A stretch of 64,000 bases of DNA from Caldisericota bacterium (GTDB taxonomy: Bacteria > Caldisericota > Caldisericia > JAAYUI01): the NCBI GenBank assembly GCA_029548865.1, contig JAKPMO010000007.1:30264-94263 (forward strand), read 5' to 3'. Positions 3,125 to 39,469 of the stretch are shown here, piece after piece. Made by a program: the position numbers and the translations under genes. Numbering within the stretch: the first letter of the stretch is position 1; the number at the start of each line of letters is the position of its first letter. The notes beneath the pieces are model-generated. The model was not told where the DNA came from and ran no database searches. It worked only from the letters and a program-made list of their open reading frames with translations.

Positions 3125-3232
3125 GGACCATAATGTAATACAGATAAGTGTTTCAACAAAAATTTCTTCGAACCGTTTTGCCTCTTGGTCCGTTTCTTGT
3201 ATTGGAAACCAATTGAGTCGATGGAGGGCAAA

Positions 3233-4339: not shown

Positions 4340-4403
4340 CAACAAGCAGATGAAAAACAAGGAAATGAGTCTTTTTTAAATACACGAAAAGAGAGGATGA
4401 ACC

Positions 4404-5534
4404 ATGAAGAAAACAATAATATTTTTGCTTGCATCAATAATCCTGGTGTCCCCATTGGGGCATGCAAAGTCCCTGAACAAAGAGGCTGCCCCTTCGCAGT
4501 TCCCGGACTTCAAAATAGTAGTAGACAAAGACTACTCATTTGAAGATCTGGATAAAAAATATACCATAATGGAGCACACAAAAGAGGAAGGCCTGGTCTT
4601 CTACAGGTTGGAGAAAAAGCAAACTGCAAAATCATTTGCCTACTTGCCAGTTCTGGACAAAAACAACAACCCTGTCAAGCTGAGTCCAAAAGACCCTGAT
4701 TATTGTTATGAAGTTGCTAAAGCTCTCAATGTTTCAATTGCAGCAGTTCAGCTGGAGACTGAGTCTGACATACTAGCGGTATCTATTGTTTTTTACAATT
4801 ATGGTGATTATGAATTTTACACAGCATTGACACAAAGTTCATTTTCTAAACATGGTACCGGTTCATCGGGGTTTGTCAGCTTTGAAAATATGCACAAGTA
4901 CAAAATGTTGTCAAAAGGTAGCGCCTACATAATAGACACCAACCTCAACATCGAGTATCTGAGACTGGAAGACAAAGAATACAAGATAACCCATGAAACA
5001 CTCAACCCGGATCTTGAAGAGAACAACATTATCTATGCCATAGATAATGTTGTTACTCACACTTATTCCAGTTATGACAATGTAGGAGGATACATCCATC
5101 TCCAACTGGACAACCCGATATATACCATAGCTGGCAAACCCATCAAATATTACCCGCCACCCACACTTAAAGACGGTCAGTTGATGGTTGGGCTGGAAAT
5201 TGTCAATAAAATGGGTGCATTTTACGAGAGAATAAAAGATACAAATGGATACAGGATTGTCAAGGCTGATAAAGCAATCCATGGGCCAATAACGGTAACC
5301 GACATCACCATTACAATCGGTGAGAAAAAGGCCATTGTTGATGGCCAGGAGTATGAACTCAGTGCCATACCGTACTATTATACTGTAAAACCTTACAATG
5401 ATAATCCAATGATACCCCTGCGTGATTTTTGCTATCTCCTTAACAATGAGCTTCACTGGAGACCAATTGACAATTCTGCCCTTATTGATAGATTCCAACC
5501 GATAGATCCGAGGGAGCCATTGCCAAAGAAATGA
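4404..5534 (+). CDS. secreted protein, paralog 3 of the tandem family and the most divergent member
   Basis: Signal peptide MKKTIIFLLASIILVSPLGHA, with AGAGAGGATGA upstream. C-terminal 'VDGQEYELSAIPYYYTVKPYNDNPMIPLRDFCYLLNNELHW' fits the stalk-domain pattern. It lacks the ARFFAPM tail. Confidence 0.5.
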   Translation: MKKTIIFLLASIILVSPLGHAKSLNKEAAPSQFPDFKIVVDKDYSFEDLDKKYTIMEHTKEEGLVFYRLEKKQTAKSFAYLPVLDKNNNPVKLSPKDPDYCYEVAKALNVSIAAVQLETESDILAVSIVFYNYGDYEFYTALTQSSFSKHGTGSSGFVSFENMHKYKMLSKGSAYIIDTNLNIEYLRLEDKEYKITHETLNPDLEENNIIYAIDNVVTHTYSSYDNVGGYIHLQLDNPIYTIAGKPIKYYPPPTLKDGQLMVGLEIVNKMGAFYERIKDTNGYRIVKADKAIHGPITVTDITITIGEKKAIVDGQEYELSAIPYYYTVKPYNDNPMIPLRDFCYLLNNELHWRPIDNSALIDRFQPIDPREPLPKK

Positions 5535-5772
5535 TGATATAAAATCATGCTTGCCAGCTCCACCACCACAGCTGGCCTCTTCTCTGGTGACATAACTTTT
5601 TCTACTTCTGGAACTGGTAAAACTTACGATAGGTCGGATACTGGATATGCATCAATGTATCGAGATAATCTTCACTTGATAGCTTTTGATAATAACAATG
5701 ATGGTATTGTAGATTACTATGAGTGGGATCTATCAGGGCTTCAAAATTGGCCATAAATATAAGGAGGAAAAT

Positions 5773-6876
5773 ATGAAAAGTAAATATATTGTACCAATAA
5801 TTCTTGCATTCACATTACTATTTGGCAATGTAGCCAGCTACAGCAGACAAAATGATAATGAAACAATGTTTTCAACTAATGGCAGGTCATTTGAGATAGT
5901 TGCATACAAATATATGGGTGGAAATAAACCCTATGAGTATGGCAAACCGTCCCCATTGCTGGTTTGTGAAGACGGGGAGCTGACATTTTACGAATTTGAA
6001 TGCAAAGATATTGAAGGGTGCCGCCAGGTTGTCCCAAAACTGGACAAAGACGGTTATCCGATAAAAATTCAAAAAAATGATAAAGATATACTTGAGAAAT
6101 TGTTTGTTACACTAAATCCAAGAATAGTTGCCAAAATTGAAAATACAAAACTGAGAATCAATGCCATTGCCCTTGGTATATTTGTTGGAACACAATGGAA
6201 TTTCAACATATACACCAAGGATTTGGTGGAAGAATTTAAGTTAAGGATGGATGCTTCAGGTACAGATAAGATCTATCCTTATGGTTCAATATCGATAATG
6301 GATGATAATTACAATTTTGAGGTTTATGAATACTATGGTGTTATGCATCAAAGAACAAGGGTTGAGTCACTTAACCCTGATTGTTGCGAATACCTTTCTG
6401 ATTATCCTGGATTATACAAGCTAGGTGAGGCATTATATAGTACAGGTGGTTTTGGTCAAGGATACCTATGGGGTAAGGTTGATTCTAATCAGTTTAAAAT
6501 TGCCGGAAGAGATTATGAATGGATTATGCCAGCATTTGTTTGGGGTGAAGGAGGTTTGTTTGTAAATCTTTTATTCCTTACAGATGTTTTGTTTGCACCA
6601 TATACTTCTGATGGGAAGACATACACCATAAAACGATTGTTTCGTAAACAATCTCGCAATGAAACCATCCTTATCGAGCTACAACTAACAAAAAACAGCA
6701 AAAAAGCTTATCTAAATGGCCAGGAAGTGGAACTTTCGCTTGAGCCGTTTGATACGAAAGACGCTTTTTATGTTCCACTCCTGGATGTCTGCAGGCTTCT
6801 CAGGGCAAACTGCCACACCAGTAGGTATGATGGGTCAATCCTCATCGCCAGATTCTTCGCCCCAATGAACGACTAG
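5773..6876 (+). CDS. secreted protein, paralog 4 of the tandem family
   Basis: Start refined to ATG 5773 (AAGGAGGAAAAT ATG; MKSKYIVPIILAFTLLFGNVASYS). Motifs: FYEFEC, DKIYPYGSISIMDDNYNFEVYEYYGVMHQRTRVESLNPD, CRLLRANCHTSRYDGSILIARFFAPMND. Confidence 0.55.
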   Translation: MKSKYIVPIILAFTLLFGNVASYSRQNDNETMFSTNGRSFEIVAYKYMGGNKPYEYGKPSPLLVCEDGELTFYEFECKDIEGCRQVVPKLDKDGYPIKIQKNDKDILEKLFVTLNPRIVAKIENTKLRINAIALGIFVGTQWNFNIYTKDLVEEFKLRMDASGTDKIYPYGSISIMDDNYNFEVYEYYGVMHQRTRVESLNPDCCEYLSDYPGLYKLGEALYSTGGFGQGYLWGKVDSNQFKIAGRDYEWIMPAFVWGEGGLFVNLLFLTDVLFAPYTSDGKTYTIKRLFRKQSRNETILIELQLTKNSKKAYLNGQEVELSLEPFDTKDAFYVPLLDVCRLLRANCHTSRYDGSILIARFFAPMND

Positions 6877-7015: not shown

Positions 7016-9631
7016 ATGATGGACGCAGCCTACAACCCGGGGCAGGTTGAAGAAAAGATATATAAATTCTGGATGGATGGCGGATTTTTTGAGTCGCACC
7101 CGGACAAGACAAAAAAACCCTTTGTCATCATGATGCCTCTTCCAAACGTTACCGGCGTCCTGCACACCGGCCACGCCCTGAACAACGGCCTGCAGGACCT
7201 CTGCACAAGATACCACAGAATGAAGGGTGAAAACGCCCTTTATCTGCCCGGTGTTGACCACGCCGGCATTGCGACCCAGATCGTCGTCGAGAAGGAACTC
7301 TACAAAACCGAGGGAAAGTCAAGGTTTGACATCGGCAGGGAAGAGTTTGTGAAAAGGGTCTGGCAGTGGAAGGAAAGGTGCGGCAACACCATTGTCAACC
7401 AGCAAAAGCGCCTTGGCATTTCATGCGACTGGTCGCACTTCCGCTTCACCATGGACGAGCCCTACCAGAAAGCAGTGCGCGAGGTTTTCTGCCACTATTA
7501 TGAAAAAGGCCTCATTTACAGGGGCAAAAAAGTAATCAACTGGTGCCCGAGGTGCCAGACTGTCATATCAGACATCGAGGTGGAGCACGAGGACGCACAG
7601 GGCAACCTCTGGCACATAAAATACCCGTTTGCCGACAATCCTGAAGACGGAATCATTGTCGCCACAACAAGGCCGGAAACCATGCTTGGAGACACTGCTG
7701 TTGCTGTAAATCCCAGCGACGAGAGATACAGGGACCTCGTCGGGAAAAAAGTCATCCTCCCGATTGCTGGAAGGGACATCCCGATCATTGCCGATGAATA
7801 TGTAGACAGGGAGTTTGGCAGTGGCGCCGTGAAGATCACACCAGCCCACGACCCGAATGACTTTGAGGTTGGCAGGAGGCACGACCTCCCGATGCCAGTC
7901 GTAATGGGGCCTGATGGCAGGATGATCGATGTCCCGGAAAGATTTGTTGGCCTCACAATGCTTGAGGCAAGGAAGAAAATCGTTGCCGAACTCGAGGAAA
8001 AAGGTTATCTCATAAAAATTGAACCCCATTCACACGCTGTTGGCCACCACGACAAGTGCAAGACAGTAATTGAACCACTCCTCTCTCCGCAGCTTTTCTT
8101 GAAAATGAAGGAACTTGCACAGCCAGCCATCGACATCGTCAGGGAAAAGGGTGTCAGGTTCACACCGGAGAGATACACGAAGGTCTATTTTGACTGGATG
8201 GAAAACATCCTCGACTGGCCCATCTCAAGGCAGTGCTGGTGGGGCCACAGGATTCCAATTTTCACCTGCGAAAAATGCAACCATGAATTTGCCTCAAGGG
8301 TCGACGTGGAAAGGTGCCCAAAGTGTGGTGGAAAGGTGCACCAGGACGAAGATGCCCTTGATACATGGTTCTCGTCTGCCCTCTGGCCTTTTGCCACGCT
8401 TGGCTGGCCGGACAAAACCGAGGATTTTGAATACTATTACCCTGGCTCACTCCTTCTGACTGCATACGACATCATATTCCTGTGGGTCGCCAGAATGATC
8501 TTCTCCGGGCTGGAGCTTGTCGGGAAGAAACCATTTGATGATGTGTACCTGACAGGACTCATAAGAGACGAACACGGAAGAAAGATGAGCAAGTCTCTTG
8601 CAAATGCAATCGACCCGATTGAAGTCATTGACAAATACGGCGCAGATGCGCTCAGGTTTACCCTCACATACCTCTCGACACTCGGCGGGCAAGACATAAG
8701 CCTCGGCGACAAAGCGCTGACTGAAGGCAGAAACTTCATAAACAAGGTCTGGAATGCCTCGAGGTTCACCATAATGAACCTTGAAGGATACACGCCCGGG
8801 CCAATCGAAAACCCGACATTTGCCGACAGGTGGATCATTTCAAAACTGTCAGAAACTGTCAGGGAAGTGACAGCCTCGTTTGACTGCTTCGATTTCGCCA
8901 AAGCTGCGAGAACGATCTATGATTTCTTCTGGACAGATTTTTGCGACTGGTATGTGGAAATGTCCAAACTCCCGCTTCAATCTGGCGGGAAGGACAAGGA
9001 GAGGACACAGAGGGTCTTGAAACTCGTACTGGACAACACTCTCAGAATACTCCATCCAATAGCCCCATTCGTGACCGAAGAGATATGGCAAAAACTGCCA
9101 CATGAAGGCAAGGCCCTAATTGTGGCGGCCTGGCCAAAACCTGAAGATCTCACCTTCGACAAACAGGCAATGGAGGAGATGGAGGTGCTTCAGGGGGCCG
9201 TAAAATCAATCAGGAACCTCAAGGCAAGCCTCAGGGTGCACCAGGCAATTGTTCCATGCTCATTCATGGCAAAAGGCAACGATGCAATAGTTCTTGAAAG
9301 AGAAAAAGACTTTGTGATAAAACTCGCCAGGATTGAGGGGTTCAACCTTGTGCAGTCACAGCCGGAAGGCACTGTTGTTGCAGTGTTCAAGGACATGAAA
9401 TTCTTCCTTGATCTCTCGGGAAGAATAGACGTAGTCGAGGAGAAAAAGAGGGTTGCAGGCTCAATCGAAAAGACGAGAGCAGAAATGGACAAAATCCAGG
9501 CTCTTCTTTCAAATCCCGACTTCGCAAAGAGAGCCAAACCAGAGGTTGTTGAAAAGAACAGGGCAAGGCAGGAAGAGCTTTCTGCCGAACTATCTGCCCT
9601 CAATGAACTGGCACTTTCGCTTGGAGCCTGA
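7016..9631 (+). CDS. valS: valine--tRNA ligase
   Basis: Class I HIGH (LHTGHALNN) and KMSKS motifs. Length of 871 aa and overall similarity pattern fit ValRS. C-terminal coiled-coil tail present. Confidence 0.95.
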   Translation: MMDAAYNPGQVEEKIYKFWMDGGFFESHPDKTKKPFVIMMPLPNVTGVLHTGHALNNGLQDLCTRYHRMKGENALYLPGVDHAGIATQIVVEKELYKTEGKSRFDIGREEFVKRVWQWKERCGNTIVNQQKRLGISCDWSHFRFTMDEPYQKAVREVFCHYYEKGLIYRGKKVINWCPRCQTVISDIEVEHEDAQGNLWHIKYPFADNPEDGIIVATTRPETMLGDTAVAVNPSDERYRDLVGKKVILPIAGRDIPIIADEYVDREFGSGAVKITPAHDPNDFEVGRRHDLPMPVVMGPDGRMIDVPERFVGLTMLEARKKIVAELEEKGYLIKIEPHSHAVGHHDKCKTVIEPLLSPQLFLKMKELAQPAIDIVREKGVRFTPERYTKVYFDWMENILDWPISRQCWWGHRIPIFTCEKCNHEFASRVDVERCPKCGGKVHQDEDALDTWFSSALWPFATLGWPDKTEDFEYYYPGSLLLTAYDIIFLWVARMIFSGLELVGKKPFDDVYLTGLIRDEHGRKMSKSLANAIDPIEVIDKYGADALRFTLTYLSTLGGQDISLGDKALTEGRNFINKVWNASRFTIMNLEGYTPGPIENPTFADRWIISKLSETVREVTASFDCFDFAKAARTIYDFFWTDFCDWYVEMSKLPLQSGGKDKERTQRVLKLVLDNTLRILHPIAPFVTEEIWQKLPHEGKALIVAAWPKPEDLTFDKQAMEEMEVLQGAVKSIRNLKASLRVHQAIVPCSFMAKGNDAIVLEREKDFVIKLARIEGFNLVQSQPEGTVVAVFKDMKFFLDLSGRIDVVEEKKRVAGSIEKTRAEMDKIQALLSNPDFAKRAKPEVVEKNRARQEELSAELSALNELALSLGA

Positions 9632-9632
9632 A

Positions 9633-10943
9633 ATGAACTACTGTGAAGCGCTTGACAAACTCGGAAGCCTTCACTACCTCGGTTCCAGGCTGGGGCTTGG
9701 AAGGATGATTCCACTGCTTGAATCGGTCGGAAGTCCCCAGTATTGCTATCCATACATTCATGTGACAGGCACAAAAGGGAAGGGTTCAACTTCCCTTATG
9801 ATTTCAAACATAATGCAGGCCTCCGGATACAAGGTTGGTCTTTACACCAGCCCACATCTCCAATCACTGCGAGAACGGATAAGAGTTAATGGAGAATTGA
9901 TAACAACAGGGGAGTTCTCCGATCTCGTGGACACAGTCTCACAAGTGGCAGAAGGGCTTGATAGCGAACTTGGGCCAGCAACTTTCTTCGAAGTAATGAC
10001 CGCCATGGCAATGCTCCATTTCAAAAATGCCGGCACACATGTTGGGATCTTTGAGGTTGGCCTTGGTGGGAGGCTGGATGCAACAAATGTCGTCGAAAAA
10101 CCTGCATGTTCAGTTATAACTGCAATTTCGTATGACCATATGGGAATACTTGGCGACACCCTCGAGCGCATCGCCAAGGAAAAAGCTGGTATTATAAAGA
10201 AAAACTGCCCACTTATTTGCGCAAAACAACCGGCAAAAGCCCTCGAGACACTCCTTGGAATAGCAAAAGACCGTAACGCAACCGTTTCAATTCAGGGGAA
10301 AGATTTTGACTATATCGACAGAGGGGCCGCCAATGGCATTGGGCAAACAATGGACTATCACTCGGATTTTGGCACCATAAAAGATATTTTTGTTCCACTT
10401 CTTGGTGAACATCAGCTCCAAAATGCCTCCATTGCAATAAGGGCCGCTGAAGTGACTTCCAGGAACGTGGGGCTAAAAATATCAGAAGATGCAATAAAAG
10501 AAGGCATAAAAAACTCTTTCTGGCCATGCAGACTGGAAGTGTTCCCAGGAGAGCCAACGATCATCCTGGATGGCGCCCACAATGGTGCATCTGCCGATGC
10601 ACTTGCTCATGCCCTTAGGCGTCACTTCAAATACAACTCGCTGACAATGGTGGTCGGACTCCTCAGGGACAAGGACACCACAAGGTTCATAAGGGCTCTG
10701 GCCCCAATGGCCAACAAAATCATTGCAACCACACCAAGTTACTACAGGAAACTCTCCTCTGACAAACTGTGTATGCGTTTCAGGCGAAGATTGTTCGAAT
10801 GCGATTCAATAGACAACCCGGCCGATGCGGTAGTAAAAGCCATCGAATCAACTCCAAAGGGTGGCGCAGTACTAGTGACAGGCTCGCTATACCTTGTTGG
10901 TGAAATGAGAACACTTTTAGGCCAGTTTGCACTTGCAAAATAA
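9633..10943 (+). CDS. folC: folylpolyglutamate synthase / dihydrofolate synthase
   Basis: Mur-ligase P-loop 'VTGTKGKGST'; 'TSPHL' motif. The ATG at 9633 is 1 nt after the valS stop (TGAAATG). valS-folC order is conserved. Confidence 0.9.
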   Translation: MNYCEALDKLGSLHYLGSRLGLGRMIPLLESVGSPQYCYPYIHVTGTKGKGSTSLMISNIMQASGYKVGLYTSPHLQSLRERIRVNGELITTGEFSDLVDTVSQVAEGLDSELGPATFFEVMTAMAMLHFKNAGTHVGIFEVGLGGRLDATNVVEKPACSVITAISYDHMGILGDTLERIAKEKAGIIKKNCPLICAKQPAKALETLLGIAKDRNATVSIQGKDFDYIDRGAANGIGQTMDYHSDFGTIKDIFVPLLGEHQLQNASIAIRAAEVTSRNVGLKISEDAIKEGIKNSFWPCRLEVFPGEPTIILDGAHNGASADALAHALRRHFKYNSLTMVVGLLRDKDTTRFIRALAPMANKIIATTPSYYRKLSSDKLCMRFRRRLFECDSIDNPADAVVKAIESTPKGGAVLVTGSLYLVGEMRTLLGQFALAK

Positions 10944-10977
10944 CAGAATAATCAATAATCTTTGCTTGGAGGACATT

Positions 10978-11580
10978 GTGAAAAAAATTATCGTTCTGGC
11001 GTTCGTGGCCATGATGGTCTTCGGACCCGTCGTAAATGTTCTTGCAGTGGATGGTGATCCTTCTGCTGTCGATACAATACAGCTTGGTGATCCAAAGGTA
11101 TCTGAAACCGTAAATGAACCAGACTTTTTCTCATCGATTGCCAAATTCTTTGACACACTCATCCCGATGGTTCCATGGGCACTCCTTGCCTCGGTGATTT
11201 TTATTGCCATGTGGGTATATTTTGATGCGTCCAGACGCACGAATTACGGCTGGTTATGGGGCATCGCATCCCTGCTTGTCGTACCATGGCTCATTTATCT
11301 TGCCTGCAGGCCGCCTTATACCATTGAAGAAATGAAACTTATCGAGGCAGATGCAAACCTAAGAAGAATAGAAAAAGAGTATTACCAGTACGTTCTCACA
11401 AAAGAGAAATACATCTGTGGCGTTTGCGGAACACCGGTACAACCCGATTATCAGGTCTGCCCAAGCTGCTACAAGGAACTCAAGAAAGTCTGTCCATCCT
11501 GCGGTAAACTCCTTGATCCGGAATGGCATATTTGCCCCTATTGCGCTTCGAGAATAACGGACAGGCCAAAGGGAGCCTGA
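10978..11580 (+). CDS. membrane protein with C-terminal double zinc-ribbon
   Basis: GTG start preceded by GGAGG. N-terminal signal/TM MKKIIVLAFVAMMVF. Two further TM segments. C-terminus has four CxxC pairs (CGVCG...CPSCY...CPSCG...CPYC). Confidence 0.5.
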   Translation: MKKIIVLAFVAMMVFGPVVNVLAVDGDPSAVDTIQLGDPKVSETVNEPDFFSSIAKFFDTLIPMVPWALLASVIFIAMWVYFDASRRTNYGWLWGIASLLVVPWLIYLACRPPYTIEEMKLIEADANLRRIEKEYYQYVLTKEKYICGVCGTPVQPDYQVCPSCYKELKKVCPSCGKLLDPEWHICPYCASRITDRPKGA

Positions 11581-25041: not shown

Positions 25042-26376
25042 TCAGATCGAATATCTCATGCTCATATCCGCATAGAATTTAAGATATCCTGCGATTTGCT
25101 CCGGTTTCTTAAAACAAGCAGGTTCGCCTAGGTCTCCCCTTTCAGAAAAGCTCTGGGCCACACATCCCCCAGCACAACTGGGGACAAGCGGACATTCAAG
25201 ATCCAGGCAACGCTTGACCTTTGAGATCCTAGCATCAATCCACATTTTTTCTTTCATGCAGTCAATAGGAGCACTGAAATTTACATTTCCTATCTCAAAG
25301 CCTTCTCTCCCAATAAATTCCCAACAAGTCCCGATTGCGCCATCGGGCGATACTGTATAAAAACCCTTCGTGCCAACACCACAAAGATTTGACAACACAA
25401 GATTTTTTATGTATTTTCTTATGTGCTTGGCTCCCCCGCAAAAACCATAAGCATTGATCAGCTCAATGATTCCGGTTATCTTTTCAAAGTAGCTATCAAT
25501 AGATAGGCATTTGCTTTTGTATCCAAGAGACTCCGGCGTCATATGGACAACAGGATATGCATAAACACGCAAATTCTCATGATTCGAAAAACCCCTTTTG
25601 TCCAAATCCATTAAAAGGCCTTTCAGTGAAAAGGCGTTCTCCAGATCAATATTTACCCTGATCTCAATATTTGGGATCTTTCTATTGATTGCTTCCCCTA
25701 TTCCATTCACAACATCTTCGTAGGATGGTTTTCCACCTACATAGAACCTTTTTGAATCATGATTCTTTTTATCCCCGTGGATTGTCACCTGTATCCTTTC
25801 CAATGGCACAGACTTCATGAATCCACCAAGCTTTTTCCTCAGCAACGACCCATTGGTGGTCATTCTCGGAGATATCTTTACTGAAGGATTTGTTTTTGAA
25901 ATTTCCTCATAAATATATCGAAAATGATCAGGAAACAAAAGAGGTTCCCCGCCATAGCAGGCCATGATAAAATGACCGATGTTAAACTTTTTCAGATGGC
26001 CCTGAATGAATCTGACCAGATTTTTTAATGTCCCTTCATCCATGATGCGATCATCTCTGGCCTCATAACAGTACGGGCAAGCAAAATTGCATGCAAAAGA
26101 TGGAGCTATCGTTATATCAAGGGTATCATTTTTCCATGTTTCTCTGGAAAATTTTTCAATCAGAAAGGATTTCTCATCAAAATTTTCGTCAACCAAAAAG
26201 AACGCATTTGACAATTCCTTGCAAGTTTTCTCTTCTTCCGGTAAGTTGCCACTGTTTATGAGACTGATCAGCCTCTTATCAATTATAATTATGGAACCGG
26301 ATATTGTAGACATCAAAACGTATTTATTTTCATCCAATTCTTTGGCAATAATAAATTTTGAAAACCTAAGACCCAT
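25042..26376 (-). CDS. radical SAM / SPASM-domain peptide-modifying enzyme (putative RiPP maturase)
   Basis: Start refined to ATG 26376 (AGAGGAG 5 nt upstream) rather than 26604. N-terminal ~95 aa look RRE/PqqD-like ('ENKYVLMSTISGSIIIIDKRLISLINSG...EEKTCKEL'). 'CNFACPYC' is a CX3CX2C motif. C-terminal SPASM 'C-x4-C-x5-C-x3-C' (CLDLECPLVPSCAGGC) plus a distal Cys. Confidence 0.8.
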   Translation of the reverse strand: MGLRFSKFIIAKELDENKYVLMSTISGSIIIIDKRLISLINSGNLPEEEKTCKELSNAFFLVDENFDEKSFLIEKFSRETWKNDTLDITIAPSFACNFACPYCYEARDDRIMDEGTLKNLVRFIQGHLKKFNIGHFIMACYGGEPLLFPDHFRYIYEEISKTNPSVKISPRMTTNGSLLRKKLGGFMKSVPLERIQVTIHGDKKNHDSKRFYVGGKPSYEDVVNGIGEAINRKIPNIEIRVNIDLENAFSLKGLLMDLDKRGFSNHENLRVYAYPVVHMTPESLGYKSKCLSIDSYFEKITGIIELINAYGFCGGAKHIRKYIKNLVLSNLCGVGTKGFYTVSPDGAIGTCWEFIGREGFEIGNVNFSAPIDCMKEKMWIDARISKVKRCLDLECPLVPSCAGGCVAQSFSERGDLGEPACFKKPEQIAGYLKFYADMSMRYSI

Positions 26377-26393
26377 AATCTCCTCTATAGACT

Positions 26394-26443
26394 CAAAAAA
26401 TATTGGGGGAGACGATTGACTATTTCTCCCCCAATATTTTTTT
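26394..26443 (-). terminator. intrinsic terminator/attenuator hairpin between the precursor-peptide ORF and the rSAM gene
   Basis: Perfect 13-bp inverted repeat ATATTGGGGGAGA / TCTCCCCCAATAT with a 12-nt loop. In transcript orientation it is flanked by an A-run and TTTTTT. It lies in the 79-nt spacer between the ORFs. Confidence 0.6.
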
Positions 26444-26455
26444 AAACACCAACCA

Positions 26456-26644
26456 TCAGACCATTGCATTATTGGTCCAGCACCTATAATTTGGGCACGA
26501 GCAGACTTCCATGGTAGCAGGATTGTAGTTTTGTTGGTCAATCCAGACAACTGACAAACCAGAAATGGGTTCCATGATTTCTGTATTAACAAGGCCACTT
26601 TCAACCGATACCTTTATCGAGTTTATATTGTGCTGATATGGCAT
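26456..26644 (-). CDS. candidate RiPP precursor peptide (62 aa) with a C-terminal Cys/Trp-containing core
   Basis: Strong SD (GAAAGGAGGTGGAGGG ATG). Sits 79 nt upstream of the rSAM-SPASM gene on the same strand. C-terminus '...NPATMEVCSCPNYRCWTNNAMV' has three Cys and one Trp. Confidence 0.45.
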   Translation of the reverse strand: MPYQHNINSIKVSVESGLVNTEIMEPISGLSVVWIDQQNYNPATMEVCSCPNYRCWTNNAMV

Positions 26645-26927: not shown

Positions 26928-27710
26928 ATGAAACAAAAAAGGTATGCACTCATCCGTCATCTCTCCCAAATTGGCTTTGTACTTCTGATTCTGTATTACA
27001 CTCTGGGGCGATTTATTTTTCCTGGGGTCAGGGGAATCGAACTACACGGAATCTGTCCCTTTGGTGGGGTAGAGACGTTGCCAACATTTCTTGCTTCTGG
27101 GGGTCTAAAGTTTGTCCATGAAACAGGCCTGTCAAACTTTGCCATGCTGGCGGCACTTCTGCTTGCCGTGCTGGCGTTTGGCGGGGCGTTCTGTGGCTGG
27201 GTGTGCCCTGTGGGTTCGGTCACGGAATGGCTTTTCATGCTAAGAAGGGTATTCTGGAAAAAGAGAATAATTGTTCCAGAAAAATTGCACAATGTTCTGG
27301 TCTGGTTCAGGTACGTCGTCCTTGCCGCCATCCTCTACATGACCTTCTCAATTGGCTTTCTGGTGTTCGGCACAGTCGACCCGTTCCTGAATCTTTTCTC
27401 GTTTGGCAGGGTGTTTGCCGTTGGCCTTGTCGTCCTGGTGCTCATCCTGATCGGCTCGATGTTTATCGAAAGGTTCTTCTGCAGATACCTTTGCCCGCTT
27501 GGCGCAATCATTCTCCCGTTTGCAAAGCTCTCGGCAACAGGCGTTGTGCACTCAAATGAAGATTGCACGTCATGCAAGGGGTGCGAAGAAGTCTGCCCAA
27601 AACAGATACCAATCAGCAGGCAGACAAAAATAGACAGGGGCCAGTGCATCAGCTGCATGAAATGCGTTGAAGAATGCCCGACGGCCCTCAGCTTCAAGAT
27701 TGGATGGTGA
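26928..27710 (+). CDS. NapH/MauN-like membrane polyferredoxin (4Fe-4S binding)
   Basis: Motifs 'CPFGG', 'CGWVCPVGS' and 'CRYLCPLGA' in TM loops. C-terminal 'CTSCKGCEEVCP...CISCMKCVEECP' is a 2x[4Fe-4S] ferredoxin. Confidence 0.75.
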   Translation: MKQKRYALIRHLSQIGFVLLILYYTLGRFIFPGVRGIELHGICPFGGVETLPTFLASGGLKFVHETGLSNFAMLAALLLAVLAFGGAFCGWVCPVGSVTEWLFMLRRVFWKKRIIVPEKLHNVLVWFRYVVLAAILYMTFSIGFLVFGTVDPFLNLFSFGRVFAVGLVVLVLILIGSMFIERFFCRYLCPLGAIILPFAKLSATGVVHSNEDCTSCKGCEEVCPKQIPISRQTKIDRGQCISCMKCVEECPTALSFKIGW

Positions 27711-27991
27711 AAAAAATGAAAATAAAGCCTTATATCGCAGGAATCCTTTTTGTTGTTCTTTTCATCGGATTGATCCAGCTGGCACAAGGTGTTGGTTTCT
27801 GGAGCTCCAGGGAACATGGCGAAGGAAGAGGAAGGCCGCCAGAAGGTTTCCAGAATGGCCAGGAATTCCAGATGCCGCCTGGTGAAGAAGGTGAAGAGAA
27901 CGAGGAAGGCGAAGGCAATCAGTATAGATACAGGATCCGCAACGAGGAGGGGGAAACAGAGGAAGGCGAGGGGCTCGAAGGACAGCCGTGA
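27707..27991 (+). CDS. small membrane-anchored protein with a Glu/Gly-rich acidic tail
   Basis: GTG/ATG start overlapping the napH-like stop. TM 'IAGILFVVLFIGLIQLA', then 'GEEGEENEEGEGNQYRYRIRNEEGETEEGEG'. Low-complexity, so the call is uncertain. Confidence 0.4.
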   Translation: MKKMKIKPYIAGILFVVLFIGLIQLAQGVGFWSSREHGEGRGRPPEGFQNGQEFQMPPGEEGEENEEGEGNQYRYRIRNEEGETEEGEGLEGQP

Positions 27992-28036
27992 CGATGTAGG
28001 AAGTGCTCAAACCAACCAAAAGGGGCAATTTGCGGA

Positions 28037-28080
28037 CTCACGGTCCAGCCATGTTTTTGTGTTGGACCGTGAGGTTTTTA
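28037..28080 (+). terminator. rho-independent terminator for the + strand pair
   Basis: CTCACGGTCCA-15 nt-TGGACCGTGAG, a perfect 11-bp stem, followed by GTTTTTA. Confidence 0.6.
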
Positions 28081-28086
28081 CAAAGA

Positions 28087-28530
28087 TCAGCCGTTTTTCT
28101 CTATGGCCTCTAGCGTCACCAAAAGACTCTCTATGAGTTCAATAATTATGGTGTACATGACAAATAGCCCATATGATAAGGCAAAAATGGTCCATGCCAT
28201 TTCCATGAAAGTATGGCATTTAATACCATGGAACAGATAGGCTAGAGTGAAATCAATTGATAATACAACAAATCCGCAAACAAGCCTTATAAACCAGCTC
28301 CTGGAATAAAAAGATGCTGGATTTTTTTCAATCTTTTTTTTGAAAGTTCGTTTGTACAAATAATAAACTGGGCGGCTGAGCAAAATGGCAAGCAGTACAA
28401 TGCAAGGAAATTCTCCCGTTCTAATATAAGCATATACGTCATCGTTGCTAATAGTAAAATAACACAATCGCAAGAATACTATTAATGCAATCAGCAATAA
28501 AATGCTTAGAAGAAGGATTTTTTTCCACAT
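28087..28530 (-). CDS. small 4-TM membrane protein, tandem paralog 1 of 3
   Basis: Shares 'YSRSWFIRLVCGFVVLSIDF' with the downstream paralogs. AT-rich. Confidence 0.5.
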   Translation of the reverse strand: MWKKILLLSILLLIALIVFLRLCYFTISNDDVYAYIRTGEFPCIVLLAILLSRPVYYLYKRTFKKKIEKNPASFYSRSWFIRLVCGFVVLSIDFTLAYLFHGIKCHTFMEMAWTIFALSYGLFVMYTIIIELIESLLVTLEAIEKNG

Positions 28531-28609
28531 GTTATTTATTATACAAAATATTCTCTTTTAAGGAATAGATATAATACCTGCAATAAAAGGAGGGGATTCA
28601 AAAAGACAT

Positions 28610-29023
28610 TTAATTATTCTTTTTCATCTCCAAATAAATCAACTCAAGAACTCCAACAAAGAAAATAAACGATCCGTATGATGCCGCAAAAGCAATCAAG
28701 GTTGTATCGATACTTGTTTGCTCAAAGCCATCAAATAACGGATAGATCTGGAACAGATCAAACGCAATGGTAATAAATCCACAAACGAGTCTAATAAACC
28801 ATCTTCTGGAATAAAGCGGCACGTGGCCTTGTTCGATTTTTACATTAAAAATTAGCCTATACAAATAGTAGATGGTAAGATACACCGTAATCAAAAGGAC
28901 GACAGAAAGGATATCCTTAAGGCTTATGTGGGATGCCGGTTTGAAGATAAAAAAATAAGCAATTACAAGTGCTAGTGTCAAAAATATCGAGAAAACATAT
29001 TGAAAGATTTTTTTCTTCCCCAT
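28610..29023 (-). CDS. small 4-TM membrane protein, tandem paralog 2 of 3
   Basis: 'EQGHVPLYSRRWFIRLVCGFITIAFDLF' is nearly identical to paralog 3. Confidence 0.5.
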   Translation of the reverse strand: MGKKKIFQYVFSIFLTLALVIAYFFIFKPASHISLKDILSVVLLITVYLTIYYLYRLIFNVKIEQGHVPLYSRRWFIRLVCGFITIAFDLFQIYPLFDGFEQTSIDTTLIAFAASYGSFIFFVGVLELIYLEMKKNN

Positions 29024-29121
29024 GTTTTTATTATATAGAATATTCTTCTTTTATAAAGTAGGTGTAAGATTCAGATTTGTAATAAAAAATAAGGGGATCA
29101 AAAATATTTTAGTTATTTTTC

Positions 29122-29532
29122 TTATTTCTCCCAATAAACCAACTCAAAAGCTCCAACATATAGAATAAACAAAATATAAATTGTGACAAAAACAATCAAA
29201 GTCCTTTCGATATACAAGTGCTTAAAACCATTAAATAGTGGATGGATAAAAAATAAATCAAACGCAATAGTAATAAACCCGCAAACGAGCTTGATAAACC
29301 ATCTTCTGGAATAAAATGGCACGTGGCCTTGTTCATCTTTTATCTTGAAAACTACTCTGTATAAACAGTAAATTGGGAAATAAATCATCATGGCAATAGT
29401 AATAAAAAAGACATTTTTTACGCAAACTTGGAGAAACATGAGGCAAAGTGCGAAAAGGAAATACCTAATAAGATAAAGTATTAATATCGAGATTACAATA
29501 AAAGCACTTATAACAAGGATTTTCTTCCACAT
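29122..29532 (-). CDS. small 4-TM membrane protein, tandem paralog 3 of 3
   Basis: Start refined to MWKKILVIS (29532), matching paralog 1's N-terminus. 'EQGHVPFYSRRWFIKLVCGFITIAFDLF'. Confidence 0.5.
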   Translation of the reverse strand: MWKKILVISAFIVISILILYLIRYFLFALCLMFLQVCVKNVFFITIAMMIYFPIYCLYRVVFKIKDEQGHVPFYSRRWFIKLVCGFITIAFDLFFIHPLFNGFKHLYIERTLIVFVTIYILFILYVGAFELVYWEK

Positions 29533-29669
29533 GTTTTTATTATAAACAAATATACATTTTTTAAAAGCGCGTATCACATCACTGATATCAATAATTCTCT
29601 TGAATTTTCATGCTGTTTACCCAAGAAATTGGTAATCTTTGATTGTATGAAATCTACAAATATTTTTTC

Positions 29670-30281
29670 CTAAGCCTTCTCCACTGGCTGTCTGATGGCA
29701 GTCCTCAGCTTCGCAGGGTCGGCCTTCCTGGGGTCACCGAGGTATATCTCGTGGTGTTTGCCGCGTGGCTTCATTCCGCCTCTGTCAATGAATTCGTGGA
29801 GCGCAGCTATTGTTGGCCCCTCGGCAGAATACGGCCCGATGTACATTATCTGGGCCGACGGCCCCTCCCTGAACGCCTCAAACCTTGCCTTCCCAAGTGA
29901 CGGGTTGGGCTTTTTCTTTTTCACCTCGGAGAGCGTTGCTTCATAATGCTCCCTTGTGATGAAATCCGGTTGCATGATCATGGCCGTCCAGAGCCAGTTT
30001 GATTTGTTCCCCTCCAGAAAGTCGTCCATGTTTTCAGCCCACCACAGGCCCTCCAGCACCATGACCGTGTAGTCCTTTTCCAGCACTTTTTTGGCCATGA
30101 ACTTGAGGGTGTAGGAGAGCGAATAGAGCACCTGCATGGCGTTCTGGTATTCCTCGGACGTGTTCGGGTCGCCCTTTCCGTCCACCATGATGAAGTTGAA
30201 TTGCGGAACTTCCACCATCACCGGCGTTTTTGGCGGGTTGTAGAGGCCCGCAAGCTGTTTTTTGAGGTCGATTTTTTCCAC
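29670..30281 (-). CDS. GyrI-like small-molecule-binding domain protein
   Basis: GTG start with GGAAGGAG upstream. 'MVEVPQFNFIMVDGKGDP...' is the typical GyrI-like beta-alpha repeat. Confidence 0.5.
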   Translation of the reverse strand: MEKIDLKKQLAGLYNPPKTPVMVEVPQFNFIMVDGKGDPNTSEEYQNAMQVLYSLSYTLKFMAKKVLEKDYTVMVLEGLWWAENMDDFLEGNKSNWLWTAMIMQPDFITREHYEATLSEVKKKKPNPSLGKARFEAFREGPSAQIMYIGPYSAEGPTIAALHEFIDRGGMKPRGKHHEIYLGDPRKADPAKLRTAIRQPVEKA

Positions 30282-30371
30282 TGGTTGTTTGCTCCTTCCC
30301 AAGCCAACAGCAACTGTTGTCTTCAGGATTATATAATCCTGAAGACAACCTGGCAATAATCGCCTAAAATT

Positions 30372-32996
30372 CTACTTCTCCGGATACTTCTTTATGAACC
30401 AGGTTTTTACTACCTGAGTGAGCACGACATAGCACACCAGCATTGCGAAAACGATTGGCCAGTAGAGCGGCGGCAGGCCAACAAGGCCAAGGGTCCCTGC
30501 AAGAGCTGAATATGGGAGGTATATGCCCGTCAGGGCGATGACAATCGAGGTGATCGTGAGGGGAAGGCTGGCCCTGCTTTGCAAGAATGGCACCTTGTTG
30601 GTCCTGATGACGTGTATGATAAGTGTCTGGGTCAAAAGCGACTCTACAAACCAACCCGTTCTGAAGAGCTCCGGCTTCCCGAGTCCGCCAAAAATAAATA
30701 TCATCACAAAAAATGTCAGATAATCAAATATCGAGCTGATCGGCCCGATGAAAATAATGAATTGCCTGATGCTGCCTATGGTCCATTTCCTTGGCTTCTG
30801 GATCCATTCCTCGTCCACCTTGTCTGTTGGTATGGCTGTCTGTGAAAAATCATAAAGAAGGTTGTTTGTGAGGATTTGGATGGGCAACAGTGGGAGGAAG
30901 GGAATGAAGAAGCTGGCACCCAAGATGCTGAACATGTTTCCAAAATTGGACGAAGCGGCCATTTTTATGTATTTGATTATGTTTCCGAAGACCCTCCTGC
31001 CCTCTATTAGTCCATCCTGAAGAACAGTGAGGCTCTCACCAAGCAGGATGATGTCCGAGGATTCCTTTGCAATATCAACAGCAGTGTCCACCGATATTCC
31101 CACGTCTGCGGCCTTGAGGGCTGGTGCGTCGTTGATGCCATCACCCATGAAACCGACGACATGGCCTTTTTTCTTCAGGATTGTTATGATGCGCTCTTTG
31201 TGCGATGGGGCAAGTTTTGCAAACACATTTGTTTTTTCCACAATCTCGACGAGCTGGGATTCGTCCATCTCTTCGAGCTGGCTGCCAAGAACGATTGAGC
31301 CAGTTTCCAGCCCGACCTGGGAGCATATTTTCTTGCTTACAAGATCGTTGTCACCCGTGAGGATTTTTACGCTGACCCCGAGGTCCCTGAGGTCTTTTAT
31401 GGCCTGCTTTGCCGTTACCTTTGGCGGGTCGAGGAAGGTGAGAAAACCAAGGAGGGTCATTTCCTGCTCGTCAGAGACACAATAAGCCTCCTGGCGTTTT
31501 GGCATTTCCCTGTATGCCAACCCAAGCGCCCTGAAACCGTTTGAATTTGACCACTCGACAAGTTCTTTTGCCTTTTGCATGTGTTCCTGGCCAAGTTTTT
31601 CAACCACACCCTGGGTCTGGATCTGTGTGCACACAGAAAATATTTCTTCTACGGCACCCTTGCATATTATGATTTGCTTGCCGGAGGCGTCTTCAACGAC
31701 AACTGACATTCGCCTTCTCACAAAATCAAAAGGTATCTCATCAACCTTTTTGAAATTTTCCTTTACATGGAGCCTTTCCTCGATTTCGGTGTGTTCAAGC
31801 ACGGCCTGGTCAAGCATGCTCTTGAGGCCAGTCTGATGGTAGCTGTTCAAAAAACCATATTCGAGCACCTCGTCAGACTCTTCCCCATCAACATCAAGAT
31901 GTTGTTCCAGCACGACCCTTCCCTGGGTTATTGTCCCAGTTTTGTCGGTACAAAGCACATCCATTGCGCCAAGGTTCTGGATTGAGCCAAGCTTTTTTAC
32001 TATCACGTGTTTCCTGGACATCGAGATAGCACCATTTGAAAGATTGACAGTAACAATCATCGGAAGCATTTCCGGGGTCAGACCAACGGCAACCGATACC
32101 GAGAAAAGGAAAGCCTCCAGCCAGTTTCCCTTGCCAAAAAAATTGACCAGAAACACCAGAGGTACAAGAAATGCCATAAAACCTATCATCAGCCATGTGA
32201 TCTGTGATATTCCTTTGTCAAAATTGGTCTTCTGCTCTGACTGGGAAACACTCTTTGCAAGATTGCCAAAAAAGGTGTCAAAACCTGTTGTTGCAACCAC
32301 AGCCAAAGCGGTACCGCTTTCGATGTTTGTTCCCATGAAACAAATATTGCTGAATTCAAGAGGATTTTTTGTTGAACCCTTCTCGCTGGCAGGAAATTTT
32401 TCAACTGGCAATGCCTCTCCTGTCAATGTGGCCTGGTTTAAAAAGAGGTCTTTTGCCTGCAAAATTCTGACATCAGCCGGGACAATGTCTCCGGCAGATA
32501 ATTTGATGATGTCACCAGGAACGAGATTGCTGAGCTTTACCTCTTCAGATTTGCCTTCACGAATGACAGTTGAAGTAGTTTGGACCATCGCTTTAAGTGC
32601 TTCCACGGCCCTGTCTGCCTTGAGTTCCTGGAAAAATTTGAGGCTCACGCCAAGGATGACCATGATTATCATCATGTAGGCTGATTTCATGTCCTTAATG
32701 AACAGGGAGACAACTGAAAGGCCAAGAAGCAAAACTACAAGAGGATTGTAGAATGCTTTGAAAAGCTTTTTTACCCAGCTTTGTTTGCGTTCGACAACAG
32801 CTTCGTTGGGCCCATATTCCTTTAATCTGTCTCTGGCCTCATAGTTATGAAGACCAATCTCAATGTTTGAATCAAGGAGATCAAGAAGATCCAATGATTC
32901 AAGCGTTGCCGCCTGTGTTAGCCTTTCCAAAGCTTTTGGCGGCATCTGATAATTGTTTGCTGTTTTCTTGCCGATTGGAAGAACGAAGTTCGCCAT
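30372..32996 (-). CDS. mgtA: P-type ATPase, Mg2+-importing MgtA-type
   Basis: 'CTDKTGTITQG', 'GDGINDAPALKAADVGISV', 'TGDNDLVSKKICSQVGL', 'NLLYD'. Ten TM segments. 874 aa. Confidence 0.75.
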   Translation of the reverse strand: MANFVLPIGKKTANNYQMPPKALERLTQAATLESLDLLDLLDSNIEIGLHNYEARDRLKEYGPNEAVVERKQSWVKKLFKAFYNPLVVLLLGLSVVSLFIKDMKSAYMMIIMVILGVSLKFFQELKADRAVEALKAMVQTTSTVIREGKSEEVKLSNLVPGDIIKLSAGDIVPADVRILQAKDLFLNQATLTGEALPVEKFPASEKGSTKNPLEFSNICFMGTNIESGTALAVVATTGFDTFFGNLAKSVSQSEQKTNFDKGISQITWLMIGFMAFLVPLVFLVNFFGKGNWLEAFLFSVSVAVGLTPEMLPMIVTVNLSNGAISMSRKHVIVKKLGSIQNLGAMDVLCTDKTGTITQGRVVLEQHLDVDGEESDEVLEYGFLNSYHQTGLKSMLDQAVLEHTEIEERLHVKENFKKVDEIPFDFVRRRMSVVVEDASGKQIIICKGAVEEIFSVCTQIQTQGVVEKLGQEHMQKAKELVEWSNSNGFRALGLAYREMPKRQEAYCVSDEQEMTLLGFLTFLDPPKVTAKQAIKDLRDLGVSVKILTGDNDLVSKKICSQVGLETGSIVLGSQLEEMDESQLVEIVEKTNVFAKLAPSHKERIITILKKKGHVVGFMGDGINDAPALKAADVGISVDTAVDIAKESSDIILLGESLTVLQDGLIEGRRVFGNIIKYIKMAASSNFGNMFSILGASFFIPFLPLLPIQILTNNLLYDFSQTAIPTDKVDEEWIQKPRKWTIGSIRQFIIFIGPISSIFDYLTFFVMIFIFGGLGKPELFRTGWFVESLLTQTLIIHVIRTNKVPFLQSRASLPLTITSIVIALTGIYLPYSALAGTLGLVGLPPLYWPIVFAMLVCYVVLTQVVKTWFIKKYPEK

Positions 32997-38444: not shown

Positions 38445-38977
38445 TGCTCCTCCTGGGGGCTTTGGATTCGGATTTTGTTAGAGGCTGCCCTAGCTCTGCC
38501 TTGCATTTATAACAGCTTAAAAATTTTAAACCATTTCAATTGCGAGTCAACTTTCAATATTAAAACAACAAACATCGCAAAATACAGCACATTTTATTAT
38601 TGAGATTAATTTGAAATAACAGCACTGGATGTTTTACAAATCGTATGGCACAAAAAAGATCCACGAATCAACCATGTAGAACCAAAAACATGACCAATAA
38701 GTAATTTGAAATATAATTTAATCAATTTTTATAGCTATAAATTGTGTTTTACCTAATTAATATCCAATATATTATTATTTAGATACAAATATCATTTTTT
38801 GATTTAATATGAGATAATAAATCTATTAGAAATGATATAATTCTATTTTTATATTTTTAAGACTACTAATATGCATTAAATAGCCATTTTATTAATAAAT
38901 ATGCTTATTAATAACTTAATATGCTCTCTAACGCACAAATTATATCTTTATTCTAAATAATAATATATTTGATGATA

Positions 38978-39469
38978 TTAGATGCTTTTTGATATCATTT
39001 TGGCCCAAGATTCGACTTTTTGCCACTCCACAAAATCGCCTTCTGGGGTCTTCATTTGCTTCATGAGTAATCTTATCGGGAACGAAAGTTTGCTAAAATC
39101 TACCTTGCCTGCAAATATTTCATGGGCGACTGGTGTGCACTCGGCAATCATGGAATCAAGGTAGGTCTGGACTTCATGCAATTTGTCCGGCATAGTAATC
39201 ATCAAACAAACGCCAAAATAAAAAAGCTTTTTCTTTTGTAGATCGGGTTTTCTCTGCTTTACAAACTCTATTGCCTCACCAAGACATTTGCCAATCCTTA
39301 TTGCACTCCCGACAACCACGGCATCATAATCGTCAATATCAATATTTCTTTTGACTTGCGACACATCAACAGTGTGGCCGTCAGATTTGATAACGCTAGC
39401 GATTCTTTCAGCTACTTCACCAGTTGAACCGCACCTTGTTGCATAACACACCAAAATTTTCTTACCCAT
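38978..39469 (-). CDS. flavodoxin (short-chain)
   Basis: Start refined to MGKKILVCYATRCGSTGEVAE, the FMN phosphate-binding loop. ~163 aa. Confidence 0.75.
   Translation of the reverse strand: MGKKILVCYATRCGSTGEVAERIASVIKSDGHTVDVSQVKRNIDIDDYDAVVVGSAIRIGKCLGEAIEFVKQRKPDLQKKKLFYFGVCLMITMPDKLHEVQTYLDSMIAECTPVAHEIFAGKVDFSKLSFPIRLLMKQMKTPEGDFVEWQKVESWAKMISKSI

Follow-up and report, generated by a model that had tools for sequence, protein, structure and literature searches.

Strings of immunity genes associated with type VII secretion (T7SS) are arranged in tandem, vary in copy number, include the membrane protein TsaI, and recombine through conserved blocks (PMC9484751). We compared these and other described systems with a tandem array of small membrane-protein genes on the minus strand of a 64-kb stretch of DNA from a Caldisericota bacterium (contig JAKPMO010000007.1 of assembly GCA_029548865.1; the whole stretch of 64,000 nucleotides is called the window). 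The array consists of three consecutive paralogous genes, designated A, B, and C, which were present where an initial annotation, made from the sequence alone, had placed three minus-strand genes; the open reading frames (ORFs) span 28087–29577. The best explanation overall, which we favor tentatively, is that these genes form an old array of ORFan paralogs in a variable islet, that the units are leaderless and their products of the immunity or exclusion type, and that the array is not dedicated to the neighboring cassette for a ribosomally synthesized and post-translationally modified peptide (RiPP) with its radical S-adenosylmethionine (rSAM) enzyme.

Like the T7SS immunity strings of Firmicutes (esaG, tipC, and tsaI/DUF443 downstream of tspA; PMC9484751), the array contains non-identical tandem paralogs that vary among close strains in number and composition. 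Recombinant alleles and short, highly similar blocks are common to both; one block of the array covers the promoter and the first ~6 codons, and the other is the 44-nt central block. The array products are predicted to be polytopic membrane proteins, as TsaI is, and in most relatives a gene for a larger, polymorphic protein is located directly upstream. Copy variation and recombinants among close relatives, which mark the esaG, tipC, and tsaI type, were both found here in the form of nine architectures and the mosaic allele P0007. Unlike the T7SS strings, the array shows no match to DUF443 or any other Pfam family and is accompanied by no LXG/T7SS toxin or secretion genes, its host belongs to the Caldisericota, and each of its genes has its own leaderless-type promoter. 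Furthermore, the polymorphic upstream protein is membrane-anchored, with a variable domain that is predicted to be cytoplasmic, and is absent from the window.

Bacteriocin immunity proteins (CPBP/Abi PF02517 in pln/blp loci, SdpI, and the immunity proteins of pore-forming colicins) resemble the array products in being small, polytopic, and strain-variable, sometimes with paralogous or orphan copies, but the array has no family match, and its neighbors include no bacteriocin, ABC exporter, or regulatory gene. The only peptide system nearby, the rSAM cassette, is not co-inherited with the array, unlike the situation in bacteriocin immunity loci. The SMR pairs EbrAB/YkkCD, the Fluc/CrcB pairs, and LrgA/CidA share with the array a size of ~110–150 aa, four transmembrane (TM) helices, and tandem paralogous genes. 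The array differs from these transport and holin-like systems in its lack of a Pfam match, its identical rather than opposite predicted topologies, its 1–4 copies with single-copy loci and frameshifted copies, and its separate promoters.

Divergence and predicted structure of the paralogs

Paralog A (29122–29532, minus strand; 136 aa) starts with MWKKIL at ATG 29532, paralog B (28610–29023, minus strand; 137 aa) starts with MGKKKIF, and paralog C (28087–28530, minus strand; 147 aa) ends in an amphipathic tail (...TLEAIEKNG). Four TM helices were predicted for each. The size range of 137–151 aa given by the initial annotation agreed with three genes of this kind, except that the 151 aa of A resulted from a mechanical GTG start at 29577; homology and the position of the promoter place the real start at ATG 29532. 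The units of ~510 bp described there correspond to start-to-start distances of 509 and 493 nt. In regard to the two protein motifs said to be shared by all three genes, the N-terminal MWKKIL was found in A and C but not in B, and the block EQGHVP.YSRRWFI.LVCGFITIAFDLF was found in A and B only, C having just YSR.WFIRLVCGF.

The amino acid identities in full-length alignments were 47% between A and B and 35–42% for A/C and B/C, and the most distant pair of paralogs was matched by BLASTP with E=1e-19. The tblastn E values among the copies inside the window ranged from 1e-16 to 1e-35. A repeat finder returned a 300-nt pair with 72% identity, a three-copy 55-nt family across the start regions, and a three-copy 44-nt family with 84% nucleotide identity at the central coding block. 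The whole units, with a DNA identity of 60–73%, have diverged too far for Tandem Repeats Finder, which reported no array. The synonymous divergence (dS) between paralogs ranged from 0.88 up to saturation. A tree resolved four paralog types, of which A and B form class I and C and a further type, D, form class II, and each type has orthologs in other species. The orthologs of A are 87% identical at the amino acid level in locus L001 and frameshifted in L002/L026, and those of B are 82–99% identical in L001, L003, L005, L018, and L019. In a second Caldisericia lineage (lineage 2), a tandem pair shows ~30% amino acid identity to the family in the window. The unit identity of 60–73%, together with the dS values, rules out a recent tandem duplication or segmental triplication, and the triplication described by the initial annotation is instead a diverged paralog family. 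The duplication is old because the synonymous sites are near saturation. These results indicate that the array is an old tandem family of three diverged paralogs, with A and B in class I and C in class II.

The conserved central block is located at 29272–29315 in A, where it codes for FYSRRWFIKLVCGF and leads from a cytoplasmic loop into TM3, and was assigned with the repeat finder to 28772–28815 in B and 28267–28310 in C (all minus strand). The invariant core of the proteins, Y.LY[KR]..F..K.E.....YS[RK].WF[IV][KR]LVCG, corresponds to the predicted cytoplasmic loop and the start of helix 3. In the DNA alignment, the three copies of the block differ from one another at synonymous positions. The constraint on the block therefore acts on the protein, and gene conversion or an RNA element as its cause is ruled out by the same differences.

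Hydropathy analysis gave four hydrophobic segments for each protein, and the secondary structure of an AlphaFold2 (AF2) model gave four long helices, in agreement with the small 4-TM proteins of the initial annotation. The AF2 model, built for B from an 11-sequence alignment, was of low confidence (predicted local distance difference test, pLDDT, 58.5) and was used for the helix count only. In A, B, and C, the Lys/Arg residues cluster at both termini and in the loop that joins helices 2 and 3, and the positive-inside rule predicts an N-in/C-in topology for all three.

The family was searched for in Pfam, NCBIfam, PHROGs, and PADLOC using A, B, C, D, and a lineage-2 protein as queries. The hmmscan of A, B, and C against Pfam-A at E≤0.1 returned 0 families, and a Pfam scan of 11 family members at E≤5 gave scattered hydrophobic noise only. 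NCBIfam returned 0 families, PHROGs no match better than E=0.009, and PADLOC none; a profile search of the PDB sequences gave 0 matches at E≤10. No significant hidden Markov model match in Pfam or NCBIfam supported membership in CPBP/Abi PF02517, SdpI, DUF3021, EntA_Immun, colicin immunity, or TsaI/DUF443. The statement that the proteins match no recognized immunity family therefore extends to Pfam, NCBIfam, PHROGs, PADLOC, and the PDB. A profile search of 5.8 billion proteins recovered 14 clusters, and an exhaustive HMMER scan of 1.84 billion representatives recovered 4. Every named source of family members was a metagenome-assembled genome (MAG) of the Caldisericia/Caldisericales, and a second profile that included lineage-2 sequences did not widen the family. 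No relative was found by tblastn in 50,697 phage records and 72,556 plasmids or among the IMG/VR viral contigs. These results indicate an ORFan family of ~135–150 aa proteins with four predicted TM helices that is traced only to the Caldisericia.

The GC content of the array was 30.9%, compared with 44.4% for the window, and its genes had GC contents at third codon positions (GC3) of 0.34–0.40, compared with 0.45–0.55 for a typical gene of the window. The description of the array as the most AT-rich part of the window holds at the 1.5-kb scale, at which it is the lowest-GC stretch, but not at the 500-nt scale, at which positions 38502–39001 are lower (21% GC). That segment, the most AT-rich 500 nt of the window, is mostly intergenic, with a P-type ATPase gene on one side and, on the other, a flavodoxin gene, the 3' end of which it overlaps by ~24 nt.

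Putative promoter layout at the start codons

In the leaderless genes of Deinococcus-Thermus and Actinobacteria, a -10 motif 6–7 bp upstream of the ORF is the accepted signature of leaderless transcription (PMC12340547; PMC3160421; PMC4007540). The "intergenic leader" that the initial annotation had described as duplicated consists of a perfect TATAAT close to each ATG. The -10 boxes of A (29539–29544), B (29030–29035), and C (28538–28543), all on the minus strand, precede the ATG by 6, 6, and 7 nt, respectively, and none of the three genes has a Shine-Dalgarno (SD) sequence. The promoter of B, TTTATA-16 nt-TATAAT, agrees with the consensus at 10/12 positions. An extended -10 element was not retained for gene C, where no spacer base separates the TG from TATAAT. 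The upstream segments were near-duplicates, as had been noted: the plus-strand sequence CATGTTTTTATTATA is the reverse complement of TATAATAAAAACATG, with a chance expectation of 0.03 matches. The pattern TATAATRNNAAYATGKGG was found at A and B, with an expectation of 0.03 in the window. An Rfam scan of 27600–30500 gave no RNA family in the "leaders" or spacers, with a top match of E=0.58.

A TA...T hexamer followed by 6–7 nt and a start codon was found in 15/15 units compared across the relatives. The exception to the TATAAT-start layout is the copy in L021, which lacks a TATAAT and is separated from the upstream gene by 8 nt. The lineage-2 pair has the same layout (TACAAT-AAAAGT-ATG for the first gene and TATAAT-AAAAAT-GTG, at the homologous start, for the second). 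A GGAGG-type SD precedes 26 of the 36 other genes of the window, and no TATAAT was found within 17 nt of the start of any of them. Because a conserved TATAAT is located 6–7 nt before each start codon and no SD is present, we consider with fair confidence that each array gene is an autonomous leaderless transcription unit. The array resembles the leaderless genes described above in its TANNNT/TATAAT element 6–7 nt upstream, in the absence of an SD, and in the maintenance of this layout among homologs (PMC12340547; PMC3160421; PMC4007540). However, the leaderless mode is genome-wide in Deinococcus-Thermus and Actinobacteria, whereas the layout is private to this family here, most of the neighbors having a strong GGAGG SD. 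The most unusual feature of the locus is this family-specific, deeply conserved promoter-at-start-codon layout in an otherwise SD-dependent genome.

Two variable islets and their neighbors

The array is located in a syntenic site at the same chromosomal position in the relatives, with flanks that are 88–98% identical in DNA. The gene order is constant: MgtA-type ATPase, GyrI-like, islet 1, E/G-rich, NapH-like Fer4_5, islet 2, and dCMP deaminase. The GyrI-like gene (29670–30281, minus strand) forms the conserved left border of the islet with the array; its GC3 is 0.74, compared with 0.34–0.61 for all other measured genes of the window.

Nine architectures with 1–4 copies and a varying order of types were found. 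Islet 1 of the window holds A-B-C and islet 2 holds the precursor and rSAM genes. The same islet 2 accompanies a 384-aa protein with D-B-A-C (L001), a 380-aa protein with D-B-C (L019), a 629-aa protein with frameshifted B and C (L018), a reverse-strand HSDR_N gene with C (L020), and a 413-aa protein with C (L021-23). Islet 2 contains 74-aa and 341-aa genes where islet 1 holds an HSDR_N gene with frameshifted A and C (L002/L026), and 74-aa and 329/341-aa genes where it holds a 384-aa protein with B-D (L005-L012). In L003 and L004, which come from one MAG, islet 1 contains a 643-aa protein with B ... C and islet 2 is beyond the covered sequence. The variation from 1 to 4 copies, which emerged from the comparison across related genomes that the initial annotation had called for, fits an accessory, immunity-like character. 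The last array gene was of class II (C or D) in every sampled architecture with a visible array end.

The islet changed within otherwise similar sequence. L018 and the window have flanks with 95–97.5% DNA identity and an identical rSAM protein, but their islet content is different and their C proteins are 77% identical. P0007 is a clear mosaic allele that matches P0010 at 98% identity over residues 1–58 and C of the window at 100% over residues 59–147, the two parts meeting at the conserved central block. B is followed by the same spacer regardless of whether the next gene is A (L001) or D (L005, L010); the junctions are therefore at the conserved block of promoter and first codons. Three independent frameshifts were located within homopolymers or beside them: T6 has become T7 in A of L002/L026 (L002 ~10285–10300), B of L018 has lost 1 nt after A7 (~5510–5530), and A6 has become A5 in the leading gene of the lineage-2 pair (L014 ~8258–8264). 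The frameshifted alleles of L002/L026 and lineage 2 recur in many assemblies, and the frameshifted alleles could be fixed pseudogenes or phase-variable switches. The ratios of nonsynonymous to synonymous substitution (dN/dS) of orthologous pairs were 0.15–0.63, compared with 0.04–0.12 for the MgtA, GyrI-like, Fer4_5, and rSAM genes. Taken together, the dN/dS values, the saturated dS between paralogs, and the variability indicate that the genes are protein-coding under relaxed purifying selection. These results indicate that the array turns over by birth-and-death, homologous recombination between paralogs, and inactivation.

The array ends at a hairpin (28037–28073) with 13-bp arms and an 11-nt loop (-21.6 kcal/mol; z=-3.9). 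This hairpin is mainly a terminator of the convergent Fer4_5/E-G-rich operon because its T-run is on the plus strand only. It accompanies the 3' ends of class II genes. The arms are CTCACGGTCCAAC and GTTGGACCGTGAG, and the 11–12-nt loop occurs in opposite orientations, ACAAAAACATGG or CATGTTTTTGTG, depending on the strain. Copies in relatives are located at L001 ~10948–10984, L018 ~5395–5443, and L003 9877–9926; in L018 and L003 the 629/643-aa gene is followed by a second copy. The hairpin copies are possible recombination or template-switch sites for rearrangement of the islet.

A membrane protein of 380–643 aa is encoded directly upstream of the small genes, on the same strand, in 6/9 architectures and in L027 (L001 7653–8807, L003 7918–9849, L018 3477–5366, L019 142–1284, and L021 752–1993). 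These proteins share only an N-terminal multi-TM domain of ~140 aa (33% identity between the 384- and 643-aa forms), and their C-terminal domains are unrelated. The gene in L021 ends 8 nt before gene C. The large protein is also an ORFan of the same clade, with 5 homolog clusters, and the 384-aa and 643-aa proteins gave no Pfam, PHROG, or PADLOC match.

The second variable islet holds the rSAM cassette (25042–26644, minus strand). Its maturase gene (25042–26376) encodes a radical SAM/SPASM RiPP maturase with CefB as its best NCBIfam match (E=8e-54, below the family cutoff), and directly upstream is a Cys-containing 62-aa ORF with a strong SD (26456–26644; MPYQHN...EVCSCPNYRCWTNNAMV). This ORF is 97–100% conserved in all rSAM-positive relatives, and it and the maturase gene are replaced together by the pair of 74-aa and 329/341-aa genes in other strains. 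The 62-aa ORF is a candidate RiPP precursor of a minimal two-gene cassette. An exported toxic product is not evident because the cassette contains no exporter or protease. The array is ~1.5 kb from the cassette, with the hairpin terminator and a convergent operon (26928–27991, plus strand) between them, and because this operon is conserved, the array and the cassette belong to two different variable islets. The operon consists of the gene for the NapH-like Fer4_5 membrane protein (26928–27710) and that for the E/G-rich small TM protein (27674–27991), which overlaps the end of the former by 37 nt. The E/G-rich protein has one N-terminal TM helix and a very Glu/Gly-rich tail (GEEGEENEEGEGN...EEGETEEGEG); it is conserved and matches no family.

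Another tandem array of paralogs is located at 2009–6876 on the plus strand of the window. It comprises four consecutive genes of ~371–385 aa with 37–42% GC, each of which has a C-terminal Cu_amine_oxidN1 (copper amine oxidase N-terminal-like) domain.

Possible role and competing explanations

The pattern of variation and the analogy with tandem strings of immunity genes that include TsaI (PMC9484751) are the grounds on which the products may be accessory membrane proteins with a protective function, such as immunity or exclusion, a reading in which our confidence is low. The small proteins would neutralize a membrane-acting factor rather than serve in housekeeping. The likeliest partner would be the polymorphic 380–643-aa membrane protein, with its conserved N-terminal TM domain and its variable, predicted cytoplasmic C-terminal domain, and the window would then carry an "orphan" set of three genes. 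A more specific version seems unlikely to us: the small 4-TM genes would be cognate neutralizers of Caldisericia-specific polymorphic membrane-anchored effectors with conserved 4-TM N-terminal and hypervariable cytoplasmic C-terminal domains. The whole would be a new two-part membrane toxin/immunity or anti-phage module with constitutive leaderless promoters, recombination of cassettes, and orphan arrays after loss of the effector.

Several observations weigh against a protective role. No homolog of the large TM protein was found in the whole 64-kb window, and no toxin, bacteriocin, secretion, or phage gene is adjacent to the array in it. A positive-inside reading of the L001 sequence by eye predicts a cytoplasmic location for the variable domain of the large protein, unlike a secreted toxin. 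Its alleles show no consistent pairing with the small genes, since D, B, or C may follow, and the lineage-2 pair has no large TM protein at all. The loci were sampled through the small genes, so the apparent rule that the large protein never occurs without them is biased. No sequence or fold similarity to immunity, holin, defense, or transporter families was found using Pfam, NCBIfam, PHROGs, PADLOC, the PDB profile search, and Foldseek, which gave no match below E=8 against the PDB, that is, noise only, for the low-confidence AF2 model (pLDDT 58.5). As for the leaderless units, a polycistronic mRNA with A-rich, SD-independent initiation regions would give a similar picture, and leaderless transcription is deduced here from the layout of the DNA.

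Four rival explanations are disfavored because each is contradicted by at least one direct test. The initial annotation had suggested that A, B, and C are immunity or export-accessory proteins for the peptide of the neighboring maturase and 62-aa precursor, which we now regard as improbable. The distance of ~1.5 kb to a bona fide RiPP-type rSAM/SPASM maturase, the conserved Cys-containing ORF with a strong SD just upstream of it, and the presence of type C in all six rSAM-positive architectures speak for this role. However, the conserved convergent operon separates the two islets, the cassette has no exporter or protease, and the association of type C (6/6 rSAM-positive and 1/2 rSAM-negative architectures) is not significant in a small, phylogenetically linked and thus confounded sample; a link confined to type C keeps a small probability. 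The array failed the tests of co-inheritance and of a shared operon or adjacency with the precursor and maturase: frameshifted A with C (L002/L026) and B-D (L005-L012) persist where the precursor and rSAM genes are replaced by the unrelated 74-aa and 329/341-aa genes, and the lineage-2 pair, flanked by a methyltransferase/YkoF pair and by an esterase, has no rSAM gene within 8 kb. The immunity or export role for the rSAM peptide is unsupported because relatives exchange the cassette but retain the array and because lineage 2 has its pair without rSAM. The annotation had named occurrence without peptide/rSAM neighbors, together with a housekeeping function, as grounds for giving up its proposal; paralogs do occur without rSAM neighbors, but no housekeeping role appeared. 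Such a role is the core of another explanation, in which the class I and class II paralogs are subunits of one hetero-oligomeric channel or transporter of the SMR or Fluc/CrcB kind. Small 4-TM proteins often oligomerize, many genomes have at least one class I gene (A or B) with at least one class II gene (C or D), and the distant lineage also has a tandem pair. On the other hand, L020 and L021-23 hold type C alone, and frameshifts affect the class I gene in L002/L026 and L018 and also the leading gene of the lineage-2 pair, which forms a separate clade in the tree; these C-only loci and frameshifted first genes rule out an obligatory heterodimer of class I and class II. All paralogs share the same distribution of Lys/Arg, which argues against antiparallel pairing. 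The promoters are separate, and the relatives differ in the number and order of the copies. With no Pfam match to SMR, CrcB, LrgA, or another transporter family, no occurrence outside one small clade, and relaxed dN/dS, a housekeeping hetero-oligomer is hardly to be expected.

The low GC and GC3, the autonomous promoter-gene units, and the restriction-endonuclease-like HSDR_N gene in the same islet of L002 and L020 would suit cargo of a phage or mobile element, organized as moron-like promoter-gene-terminator units for superinfection-exclusion or holin-like proteins. Such an origin is highly improbable, given that phage records, plasmids, and IMG/VR contain no relatives, PHROGs and PADLOC give no credible match, and the islet occupies the same chromosomal site in every relative; the scanned ORFs of the window include no integrase, transposase, or phage structural domain, although no tRNA scan was made. 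It is also very unlikely that the copies are neutral, decaying ORFan duplicates with no specific role. Recurrent frameshifts, presence/absence variation, and constraint that is relaxed relative to the flanking genes are what decay would produce, but dN/dS is well below 1 for all orthologous pairs. Furthermore, intact ORFs, the invariant central motif, and the promoter-start layout have been kept despite saturated synonymous divergence and an identity of ~30% to lineage 2.

An old, variable array of protective membrane proteins that is independent of the rSAM cassette is thus the explanation that we tentatively retain. The result removes the tempting annotation of "rSAM peptide immunity" and shifts attention to the polymorphic 380–643-aa membrane protein. 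The protein family is new, but small membrane-protein paralogs in tandem arrays that vary between strains are a familiar genomic arrangement. If the explanation is true, the array represents a new protein family with no detectable relatives outside the poorly studied Caldisericota, a phylum rich in uncultivated members. It would be a compact example of how accessory membrane genes diversify, through promoter-gene cassettes, recombination via two short conserved blocks, and recurrent inactivation by frameshift. It would also offer a clean comparative case of a family-specific leaderless organization amid strong Shine-Dalgarno sites.

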